The position numbers were made by a program, and so were the translations under genes. Positions 1 through 3,786 of a stretch of DNA of 64,000 nucleotides are shown here, one piece after another. Position 1 is the stretch's first letter, and every line of letters starts with the position of its first letter. The notes under the pieces are model-generated. The model saw only the letters and a program-made list of their open reading frames with translations. It was not told where the DNA came from and did no database searches. The DNA is from a virus (Duplodnaviria; Caudoviricetes), in IMG/VR virus record IMGVR_UViG_3300043754_000129, positions 96,001 through 160,000 of that record. The stretch is one strand, 5' to 3'.

Positions 1-805
1 TATTGTTCCAATGAAGGAGTTGGGGGAGACCCGCCTCGCCATAGCGATCCTGGGGTCTCCCTCCGTTTTTGCTCTATGCTTACCACGCTGAGCAGTTGCG
101 GTCCCGTCATGACGTCGTACCTACAGGGTTGCAGGAATTATGGCCAGGCAGTCCCATTCCCATGTCAATGCAGCTCAAAGGCGGCGAACAGAGGGGATCG
201 GCGAAAGTGACTCTATATATGCAACTCATCCGGTAGGTCTAGTGTCGCTACCCTACTAAGGGTAGATTTACTCTTGGGAAAGCTTGCGAAAGGGCTAGAT
301 ATGGCCCAGGTTTATGCGTACGCCGGCGATTTCATGCCCCACCCCCTTAGCCTTTTACGCAAGGCCCTTATGCGCGTGTGATAAGTCAATTGGTCGTGAC
401 TAACCGTGCCAGCGAGATCTCGCCTGATGAAGGCCGTCGGCAATGTCAATGCATAGCGGACGATGCCATAGCGAGTTGGCCCCTAATACTCCCGGCGCTC
501 GCCGAGAGGTGTCGCGATACTAGATCCGGTCAATGAGTGCCCGTCCACCACAGTTCCCACACCGCAGTGATCGTCAGAAGCCGCATTCTCGAAGTCTAAC
601 CGCTAATTCCCGTCAAGGAACAAATCGATAATCTAGTCGAACCGTACATCCGTAAAGCTCCGGATCGTTCTCGCGAGCAGCAGCGCGCGTACACCGCGCG
701 GGTACAGGTCAGGGAATTCAGTCAGGCCTCGAATGCTATCGTAAAGTGCACCTACCTGTCCCCGCAAGAGGCCTTTCGCCTCCGAAGAATGCGCGCTGCC
801 CAAAC
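1..805 (+). ncRNA. Candidate large structured non-coding RNA (may begin upstream of the window)
   Basis: No credible ORF over ~800 nt. Nested helices: 119-133/220-238, 248-254/259-265, 583-589/786-792, 605-611/712-718, 724-730/768-774. GNRA-type loops at 201-208 and 283-292. G-U pairs mostly favour the + strand. Confidence 0.5.
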
Positions 806-1273
806 TTAACCCACCACGATCAGCGTGGTGTTCAATGCTTTCTTGTCCCACAGGTACTCGTAGACTGCGCGACGAGCAAAGTGGAACCAGTGACTGGCTT
901 CGTCAATCAGAAACTCGTCAAAGTCGCCCAGAGTACCATCGGCGATACGCACCTTGAGTTCATTGGCGGTGATGAGGCGGGCTTTCACGCTCTCTTCAAG
1001 TTCGCCACGGTCAAACCGGTGCGCCGACAACAGGCCTGTCCTGAGAAAGCTGTCGCGCACCACCATGAGCGCCTTCTCGTTGCCCATGATGCGTTTGACC
1101 ATCCAGTAGGACTTGCCCATCTGCCGCGGCACGTTGAAACCAACCGTGCGGTATTCGCCGAAGAAGGTCGGACCGAACGTATCGATGTGGCCGTACTTCT
1201 CAGCCACTTCTTGACCGTTCTTCAGACCAATCAGCAGCTCATTAACGATGAGATCGAAATCGATTCTTTTCAT
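806..1273 (-). CDS. Small P-loop NTPase resembling a truncated terminase ATPase domain
   Basis: Walker A-like VPRQMGKS and Walker B FLIDEA in a 155-aa ORF. Confidence 0.7.
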   Translation of the reverse strand: MKRIDFDLIVNELLIGLKNGQEVAEKYGHIDTFGPTFFGEYRTVGFNVPRQMGKSYWMVKRIMGNEKALMVVRDSFLRTGLLSAHRFDRGELEESVKARLITANELKVRIADGTLGDFDEFLIDEASHWFHFARRAVYEYLWDKKALNTTLIVVG

Positions 1274-2781: not shown

Positions 2782-3786
2782 TTAGAGCACCACGCCCGTG
2801 TCAGTCGCAACGTCGTTCTTGCCGATGATGTTGGCTTGCGCAACGCGCGCACCTTCATCCGTCTTGAACTCGTCGAGCACCTTGTTCAGATGCTTGGCGA
2901 CGTCACCGAACACGCCGTCGCTCGTCACGTAGTGGTACGGGCTCGACAGCGTCTTGCCGTTGAACGTACCATCCACGAAACCGACCTTCTGCATTTCCGG
3001 GCGCTTTGCGAGCGTCGGATCCAGACCGTCGGCGGCCAGCGTGGTGATCGAGATCAGATTGCCGATCTTATTCAGATCGGTATCGACCTTGTCGGTGAAC
3101 AGCGACAGCGCGACCAGGTTCGGCGAGTAGGACGTGACACGATGGAAGTTAATCCAGTTGTACAGGTCCATGCCGTCCAGTTCGCGATTGCGGCGCGAGA
3201 ACAGGAGCAGCAGTGCCGACACGAGGTCTTGCACGCGCGCGTCGACGGCGGCACGGTTCATGTCGCGGCCGTTTTGCAGGTAGTACATGACCACCGGCTT
3301 CTTGCGCGTGTTGATCGCGATGTTCTGGTACGACTTGATCGTCTTCAGCGTGTTCTCGGTCCACGTCTTCGTGGCATCGTCGCCGACCATCACGACGATC
3401 GTGAGCTTGTCGTTGCCGAGCAGTTCCGAGGTCAGGCAGGAAGCGAGCACGGCGCCCGTGCCACCACCGCCCGAGGAGACGACGATGTTCAGATCGGCAG
3501 GCTTGAACAGGTTGAGGATCTCACGCGTGCGTGGCGCGATGTCCTCGTAGTTCTCGGCGCGAATGCCGCCCGAGCCGTCCTTGCCGTCGACCAGGTAAAG
3601 CTTGTCAGCGGGGATGCCTGCGTGCAGGTTGGCCTTCGAGGTGTCCAGGTAGACCGTGTCGAGGTTGGCGAACACGTTCTGATCGGTTTGCTTGGTCAGC
3701 ATCGCGGCGACCTTGCTTCCGATATTGATACCGGCACCACCGCAGGAGAACAGCCGCACGAGACCCAATTCACGTTCGTGAGTCAT
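2782..3786 (-). CDS. phuZ: PhuZ phage tubulin (tubulin/FtsZ family)
   Basis: FSCGGAGINIG and VVSSGGGGTGA tubulin signature, DGSGG loop; start at MTHERELG (334 aa). Confidence 0.93.
   Translation of the reverse strand: MTHERELGLVRLFSCGGAGINIGSKVAAMLTKQTDQNVFANLDTVYLDTSKANLHAGIPADKLYLVDGKDGSGGIRAENYEDIAPRTREILNLFKPADLNIVVSSGGGGTGAVLASCLTSELLGNDKLTIVVMVGDDATKTWTENTLKTIKSYQNIAINTRKKPVVMYYLQNGRDMNRAAVDARVQDLVSALLLLFSRRNRELDGMDLYNWINFHRVTSYSPNLVALSLFTDKVDTDLNKIGNLISITTLAADGLDPTLAKRPEMQKVGFVDGTFNGKTLSSPYHYVTSDGVFGDVAKHLNKVLDEFKTDEGARVAQANIIGKNDVATDTGVVL

Follow-up and report, generated by a model that had tools for sequence, protein, structure and literature searches.

The locus described here raises the question of what is specified by some 800 nucleotides of a phage genome in which no gene can be recognized, and in particular whether they encode a large structured RNA, as the original prediction had proposed. 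The DNA analysed, referred to throughout as the window, is 64,000 nt long and corresponds to bases 96001-160000 of a 323,678-bp virus genome, in which window position 1 is internal and not an end. A PhuZ-type tubulin gene is located at window positions 2782-3786 on the minus strand (Pfam Tubulin/TubZ_C), and relatives of the window phage encode chimallin, which together identify this phage as a nucleus-forming jumbo phage. The non-coding tract occupies positions 1-805 and is read here on the minus strand, where it lies between the stop codon of a 155-aa gene (at 806) and the start of a 74-aa gene. The latter, likewise on the minus strand, starts 4 nt outside the window on its left side and is followed by a minus-strand tRNA cluster. 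To the right of the tract, the 155-aa gene (806-1273), an acyl carrier protein (ACP) gene assigned by Pfam PP-binding, a 156-aa gene, a second gene-free tract (2108-2781) and phuZ follow one another, all of them on the minus strand.

The tract is conserved, non-coding and rich in helices, and on the gene strand it covaries in the way expected of RNA; the proposed large structured RNA locus is borne out by the conservation of multiple helices in relatives. We consider it probable, though well short of certain, that the tract represents a hitherto undescribed RNA family, whose members are large (0.6-1.1 kb), structured and composed of several domains, would be read from the minus strand and occur in a clade of soil nucleus-forming jumbo phages with Burkholderiaceae-type hosts.

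That the tract is free of genes, as predicted, is confirmed by a codon model, by substitution phase and by indel lengths. A codon model derived from 74 long genes of the phage assigns strongly negative scores to all six frames of 1-805 and positive scores to the flanking genes, and the longest open reading frame within the tract measures 72 aa. Mismatches against the homologue L080 are spread evenly over the three phases (90/80/73), the gaps in the same comparison (1, 3, 5, 7, 16 and 40 nt) are not confined to multiples of three, and a strain variant of 99% identity carries 1-nt indels inside the tract. The description of the genome as tightly packed holds roughly, since some 50 gaps of at least 300 nt remain after crude gene calling. 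At the 5' border of the tract, a pattern scan recovered a terminator-like minus-strand hairpin (812-830) that overlaps the final codons of the 155-aa gene upstream, and the T-run directly after the stop codon of this gene is kept in relatives. No canonical promoter motif was found at this border, and a sigma-70 promoter scan returned no site.

Homologous tracts were obtained from the contigs of PhuZ relatives, which the PhuZ search returned at 41-77% identity, from pattern scans of the conserved blocks in IMG/VR, metagenomes and species genomes, and with a covariance model; the 99% strain variant was reached via protein cluster members and the contigs encoding them. Altogether, 13 homologous tracts of 0.6-1.1 kb each are available, none with a credible gene, and they start directly after the ACP gene or after one gene inserted behind it. 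Two of them come from assemblies of Caballeronia arationis and Paraburkholderia sp. BCC1886, and the sequencing runs found to contain the tract of the window itself are three soil DNA metagenomes, with no RNA run among them. The conserved-block scans gave one true match out of 120 in metagenomes and one out of 99 in genomes, the others being due to chance, and a hairpin-core pattern scan of IMG/VR was discarded, all of its 70 matches being chance matches. A blastn search of the tract against 50,697 cultured-phage records and single-protein locus searches of IMG/VR with the 155-aa protein and PhuZ gave no match, and no paralogue other than a 19-nt hairpin core was found in the phage's own 324-kb genome.

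Conservation is unevenly distributed along the tract. L080 is 73% identical to it over 688 nt, with rewritten segments between perfectly identical blocks, of which one spans 56 nt; the PhuZ protein of the L080/L204 lineage shows 65% identity. In the 99% strain variant, a 44-nt patch of the tract (549-592) is rewritten; the other differences are a few substitutions, three 1-nt deletions and a 1-nt insertion. The variant's patch is the version present in L080 and L079, and the 155-aa gene (window 806-1273 against L073:4727-5194) differs by about 13% between strains that are about 99% identical elsewhere, a combination which looks like recombination mosaicism. The 155-aa protein, for which no Pfam hit was found, displays Walker A- and Walker B-like motifs by eye and resembles the N-terminal part of proteins from Klebsiella, Serratia and Pseudomonas jumbo phages, one of which is annotated as a terminase large subunit.

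The original prediction had been built on six helices, all of which are found in the window at the positions given for them. As a set, they are no more frequent than in dinucleotide shuffles, with 92, 22 and 7 perfect complementary 6-, 7- and 8-mers compared to 78±11, 20±6 and 5±3. Folding energy relative to shuffles, which had been suggested as a check, is modestly favourable on the plus strand (z -2.3) and not on the minus strand (z +0.3). The single-sequence case for structure is therefore weak, with complementary words at chance level, a modest plus-strand energy and a minus strand that folds no better. Full-length MFE z-scores are negative on average and inconsistent across strands and sequences, and windowed single-sequence stability z-scores and the SCI of a four-sequence alignment are no better than in a PhuZ coding control, measures that we judge uninformative at about 45% identity. 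Comparison with relatives divides the six helices. Three of them (119-124/233-238, 126-133/220-227 and 248-254/259-265) are retained with compensatory changes and one (724-730/768-774) is weak. The remaining two are chance complementarities specific to the window: 605-611/712-718 is missing from relatives, and 583-589/786-792 is missing from every relative and broken even in the 99% variant. The two GNRA-type loops that had been pointed out (203-206 and 286-289) fall, in the alignments, in segments that are unconserved or without conserved closing stems.

A covariance model, R1, was built on the 3' module of the tract (window 11-144, minus strand). R1 matches all relatives at E-values of 1e-24 to 1e-45, on the gene strand every time, and does not match two more distant phages with PhuZ identities of 48% and 41%; on 99 loci (732 kb) pattern-fetched from unrelated genomes, it gives one true match and otherwise none. 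In the R1 alignment 98.2% of cells pair, compared to 79.5% in shuffles and 50-58% with slid partners, and both sides have changed in 10 of 19 pairs (47 cells). On four of five measures none of 500 shuffles scored as high, and one of 500 did so for the number of pairs altered on both sides, statistics which are inflated by the kinship of the 13 related sequences. Covariation among homologues, another check put forward with the prediction, is thus present, with compensatory changes far above both the slid-partner and the shuffle controls.

The structural parts can be followed along the minus strand from the 5' end. A 5' domain (679-800), recognized by a model-free covariation scan, is closed by an 8-bp G+C-rich long-range helix (793-800/679-686), which over 12 sequences comprises 91 Watson-Crick, three G.U, one A.C and one broken cell, with three pairs changed on both sides. 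The same scan uncovered a G.U-rich hairpin at 549-566 (stem 561-566/549-554; 42 Watson-Crick, 16 G.U, three A.C and four broken cells; four covarying pairs). About 14 positions of this segment differ in the 99% strain variant, which still pairs in the RNAalifold register 562-566/549-553 with one compensatory change, one one-sided change and no broken pair. A third element from the covariation scan, the hairpin at 384-401 (stem 397-401/384-388), has a nearly invariant 8-nt loop and a stem with 45 Watson-Crick, two G.U and no broken cells and three covarying pairs, including an exchange of A-U for G-C in L075 and L205. The hairpin at 248-265, the third helix of the original prediction, shows six pairs changed on both sides in RNAalifold, and in L080 three compensatory pairs, one of which is G.U on the minus strand only.

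The 3' domain (119-238) consists of the nested helices 220-227/126-133 and 233-238/119-124, in which L080 and L099 show compensatory changes. In the former helix, 9 of 12 sequences in an anchor-based table keep 6-7 of the eight pairs, with GC/AT/TA exchanges at positions 3-7, and the helices of the domain are flanked by conserved motifs on the minus strand, a CATATATAG-like one at 211-219 and a TAATTNCTG-like one at 134-145. The most conserved block of the tract (72-145) contains a small hairpin at 83-101 (stem 98-101/83-86) with an invariant loop of 11-12 nt, in which 100% of cells pair, one pair being G.U in seven sequences and C-G in five and another being C-G or U-A. The terminal, terminator-like stem-loop at 24-61, defined in the R1 alignment, combines an invariant apical stem (44-47/36-39) and purine-rich internal loop with a freely covarying outer stem (53-61/24-32), in which 8 of 11 pairs have changed on both sides and 97.7% of cells pair. 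A reading of the internal loop as a K-turn, made by eye, was rejected, the G.A/A.G positions being unconserved. In most relatives, a 40-nt insert is also present (A4 columns 79-125; e.g., L077:13280-13330), which is deleted in the window lineage and in L205; it comprises two interleaved stems resembling an H-type pseudoknot, with apparent compensatory changes.

Consensus folding, expressed as the z-score of RNA folding energy against column-shuffled alignments in 250-column windows, gave minus-strand values of -6.6, +0.4, -2.7, -6.5, -4.6, -1.0, -2.7 and -3.1 for 12 sequences; a further 12-sequence window at -53 is not meaningful, the shuffle variance being near zero. With four sequences, six of eight minus-strand windows range from -3.0 to -4.1 and the others score +1.0 and -1.5, and the values for two alignments of coding sequence from these phages lie between +1.2 and -2.3. 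A complete secondary structure was not obtained because the alignment of the variable part is uncertain. RNAalifold on the module 100-300 recovered the 248-265 hairpin alone since the helix arms are out of register, and on a plain MAFFT alignment of the whole tract it did not separate the strands.

Within the invariant block at 312-378, which includes the 56-nt identity with L080, a Shine-Dalgarno (SD)-like purine run (336-347) precedes a minus-strand mini-ORF of seven codons, MKSPAYA (ATG 335-333, stop 314-312). SD, ATG, 2-7 codons and a stop are kept in 10 of 11 homologues, and the peptides vary (MK, MKR, MRK, MKSK, MKRK). This conservation fits expression from the minus strand and suggests a putative ribosome contact. 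The arrangement is reminiscent of the lambda bar minigenes and of bacterial start-stop upstream mini-ORFs, which likewise combine a strong SD with an ATG and an early stop, here after 2-7 codons and kept across lineages. Minigenes of two and three codons cause peptidyl-tRNA drop-off. Unlike the lambda bar minigenes, the present mini-ORF sits in a large structured RNA, and its codons specify Lys and Arg rather than Ile.

The 3' border is defined by the terminal stem-loop and by what follows it. A G+C-rich terminal stem is present in all 12 sequences and its tails are C/U-rich, with runs of at least three U in most relatives but no more than CCCCCAACUCCUU in the window. Genome-wide, 53 intergenic sites carry a G+C-rich hairpin with TTTATGCCGTC immediately after it, usually 15-170 nt before the start of a same-strand gene, and these sites often stand back-to-back on both strands (for example G000 93768-, 101698+ and 102102+). 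They look like a compact terminator-promoter cassette, and the TATG core of the TTTATGCCGTC signal presumably resembles phiKZ-type promoters. In six lineages without tRNAs, such a hairpin-plus-TTTATGCCGTC signal lies a few to about 15 nt past the terminal stem, after the short C/U-rich tail; in four lineages, the place of the TTTATGCCGTC word directly behind the RNA is taken by a tRNA array, alone or together with a small gene, and in one tRNA-bearing lineage the first tRNA begins a few bases past the tail. As the signal or the tRNAs follow after the tail, the stem-loop can be taken as the end of the conserved RNA. A position weight matrix of the TTTATGCCGTC signal found no site within the tract on either strand, and the internal loop and apical stem of the terminal hairpin occur in only two copies in the 324-kb genome, so that this hairpin is not a general terminator motif.

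In line with the predicted novelty, none of the 4227 Rfam 15 models reached its gathering score in a cmscan of the 64-kb window, and no family, including GOLLD, ROOL, OLE, raiA and HEARO, matched the tract. At E<=10, L001 yielded nothing meaningful over the tract, apart from a chance match to mir-96 at E 8; the tracts of L077, L205, L208 and L209 have no match at E<=1. The absence of tmRNA, RNase P and group I/II intron hallmarks was also upheld, in that ARAGORN finds the neighbouring tRNAs only and Rfam has no hit in 1-805; moreover, the flanking ORFs are complete genes, and thus no split exons are present.

In bacteria and phages, large non-coding RNAs with an intricate fold are rare, and each new family, such as GOLLD, ROOL, OLE and raiA, has raised questions about RNA-only architecture and function. 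With GOLLD and ROOL, the present RNA shares a length of hundreds of nucleotides, many helices, closed domains and an occurrence in phage genomes. GOLLD and ROOL are often found beside tRNA genes, with which they are possibly co-transcribed (PMC5737381), and in four of the present lineages a tRNA array lies directly behind the RNA. The likeness is one of context only, however, with no Rfam model match for the window or four homologues. In contrast to GOLLD and ROOL, the RNA described here occurs in nucleus-forming jumbo phages with Burkholderiaceae-type hosts, carries an SD-ATG mini-ORF and, together with a second RNA, flanks a small protein cassette. For GOLLD and ROOL, cryo-EM has revealed multimeric cages (bioRxiv 10.1101/2024.12.08.627333), an assembly that would be hypothetical for the present RNA.

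Among giant phages, 201phi2-1 and phiKZ use intrinsic terminators with conserved sequence motifs (PMC11512511), which the long G+C-rich 3' stem-loop with its U/C-rich tail and the genome-wide TTTATGCCGTC-bearing hairpins resemble; unlike those terminators, the present stem-loop caps an 800-nt conserved structured region. For giant Pseudomonas phages, sRNAs and 5'-UTR-derived RNAs have been mapped, one just upstream of a tRNA (PMC11512511, PMC8244752). These are likewise non-coding RNAs of chimallivirus-type phages, but they are short and defined by transcript ends, whereas the present tract is defined by sequence comparison. The giant-phage transcriptome papers report short sRNAs and motif-bearing terminators and no RNA resembling the present tract. 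A new covarying family in nucleus-forming jumbo phages would come from a setting in which RNA must cross the nucleus shell and structured RNAs have hardly been described.

The proposed RNA would begin just behind the ACP gene block and run in gene direction. It may exist on its own, as a free or processed stable species, or remain part of the ACP operon message. The terminal stem-loop would end and/or protect it, as suggested by the U/C-rich tails and the terminator-promoter signal that come after, and the tRNA arrays inserted right behind the stem-loop in four lineages would be co-transcribed with it. Its fixed loops and SD-ATG mini-ORF would engage a conserved partner in the cytoplasm, most simply the ribosome or a cassette protein, and the RNA would act together with the tract at 2108-2781 and the cassette proteins.

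The alternative that competes most seriously, although we regard it as unlikely, is a giant structured UTR: the tract would then belong to the ACP operon message as its 3' UTR, or as a 5' leader precede the downstream genes (the 74-aa gene with the tRNA array, or a 124-aa gene), and would act in cis on stability, processing, nuclear export or translation. All neighbours lie on the same strand, and one long transcript is possible since no canonical hairpin-plus-TTTATGCCGTC signal occurs on the minus strand from G000 100614 to 93768. In both tracts, the hairpin core precedes the next gene by 30-110 nt, and the mini-ORF could be a regulatory upstream ORF. Against this, the terminator-promoter signal intervenes between the terminal hairpin and the next gene in six lineages, thereby separating the RNA from that gene, and the downstream content varies (tRNAs, 74-aa gene, 124-aa gene) while the RNA is constant. 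In addition, 600-1100 nt with closed domains far exceed ordinary leaders. In chimalliviruses, transcription takes place inside the phage nucleus and translation outside, a separation that would exclude coupled attenuation.

Nine relatives share the tract at 2108-2781, which separates phuZ from the 156-aa gene, at coding-like identity. Its minus-strand consensus-fold z-scores (-11, -27 and -11; weaker on the plus strand) are even stronger than those of the tract at 1-805, and no Rfam 15 model matches it or its homologues. Judging from these alignments, this tract, too, probably encodes a new large structured RNA. Near its 3' end, a second minus-strand copy of the terminal hairpin core (2219-2256) retains 18 of the 19 nt of the core, and the outer stems of the two hairpins (24-61 and 2219-2256) are unrelated in sequence, each being self-complementary. 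R1 matches 2219-2256 at E 5e-4, together with the equivalent place in L205 and L208. In the two distant phages with PhuZ identities of 48% and 41%, phuZ is directly followed by a homologue of the 124-aa gene, which in other phages follows the tract. Since the block is missing there, the second tract, the 156-aa gene, the ACP gene and the first tract constitute an accessory module, for which the proposed order is RNA2, 156-aa protein, ACP, an optional small P-loop protein and RNA1, between phuZ and the next conserved gene. More speculatively, and in our estimate improbably, the two tracts could be RNA subunits of one module gained as a unit, working either with these proteins as a ribonucleoprotein machine or with the ribosome via the mini-ORF; if true, the tracts would be no passive UTRs, and nucleus-forming phages would harbour large RNAs of a new functional class. 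Independently of this, the paired RNAs flanking the ACP cassette and the mini-ORF offer concrete experimental handles.

The original prediction had placed the RNA on the plus strand, antisense to its neighbours, a reading that did not hold and that we now consider very unlikely. In the supported helices, about 34 G.U cells are counted on the minus strand compared to about nine A.C cells, and together with the fold z-scores, the tails and the mini-ORF this leads us to conclude from the alignments that the RNA would be a minus-strand transcript, in the sense orientation of the flanking genes. The plus strand has in its favour the window's own folding energy, set against a value of about zero on the minus strand, yet the minus strand of the homologues is equally or more stable. 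Full-length MFE z-scores are -3.4 on the minus strand against -0.1 on the plus strand for L080, -5.1 against -1.3 for L077 and -3.9 against -2.5 for L208, with markedly better minus-strand folding in three of six full-length homologues. Consensus-fold z-scores are also lower on the minus than on the plus strand in most windows. In three sequences, an A.C pair of helix 126-133/220-227 on the minus strand would be G.U on the plus strand; conversely, the 83-101 hairpin would hold A.C in 7 of 12 sequences if read from the plus strand, and the G.U pairs of the 549-566 hairpin outnumber its A.C pairs on the minus strand. Terminator-like plus-strand sites at 51-65 and 248-265 and a TATATG-like motif at 213-218 also fit plus-strand transcription, whereas the plus-strand T-run after the 22-61 hairpin is confined to the window lineage.

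An element acting as DNA, such as an origin, a packaging site or a cluster of protein-binding sites, in which the inverted repeats form DNA hairpins or sites for dimeric binders, has a slightly smaller chance still of being the correct explanation. The tract is long, non-coding, conserved and rich in inverted repeats, it contains an ATTGAC-like word four times, and a short AT-rich patch lies at 211-219, all of which such an element might display. The covarying stems, however, tolerate G.U in alternation with C-G and differ between the strands, neither of which is expected of DNA; cumulative GC skew has no extremum near 96 kb, tandem iterons were not found, and the tract is part of an accessory cassette missing in more distant relatives, unlike an origin. 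That the tract is a decayed gene or neutral spacer with hairpins arising by chance is scarcely credible: the single-sequence complementary words are at chance level and part of the tract segments are lineage-specific, but identical blocks persist between phages whose PhuZ proteins are merely about 65-77% identical, compensatory changes exist, no frame retains a relic coding signal, and the covariance-model matches are specific.

The structured RNA favoured here may also become accessible in the laboratory, as related contigs occur in assemblies of cultured Paraburkholderia and Caballeronia. Clade contigs L206 and L246 (144 kb and 286 kb) stem from assemblies labelled Caballeronia arationis and Paraburkholderia sp. 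BCC1886, which provides a host hint and possibly a culturable system. Two further observations concern the surroundings of the locus. In a more distant relative, a gene of the IS605 OrfB/TnpB type (Cas12f-like; L211:1869-3077) is located a few kilobases from phuZ. On the minus strand at L001:1-540 (G000 94501-95040), tRNA-like genes of 130-150 nt are found, which are called neither by ARAGORN nor by the Rfam tRNA model; their acceptor, D and T arms are normal, and the place of the anticodon arm is taken by a large insert with a second T-arm-like element.
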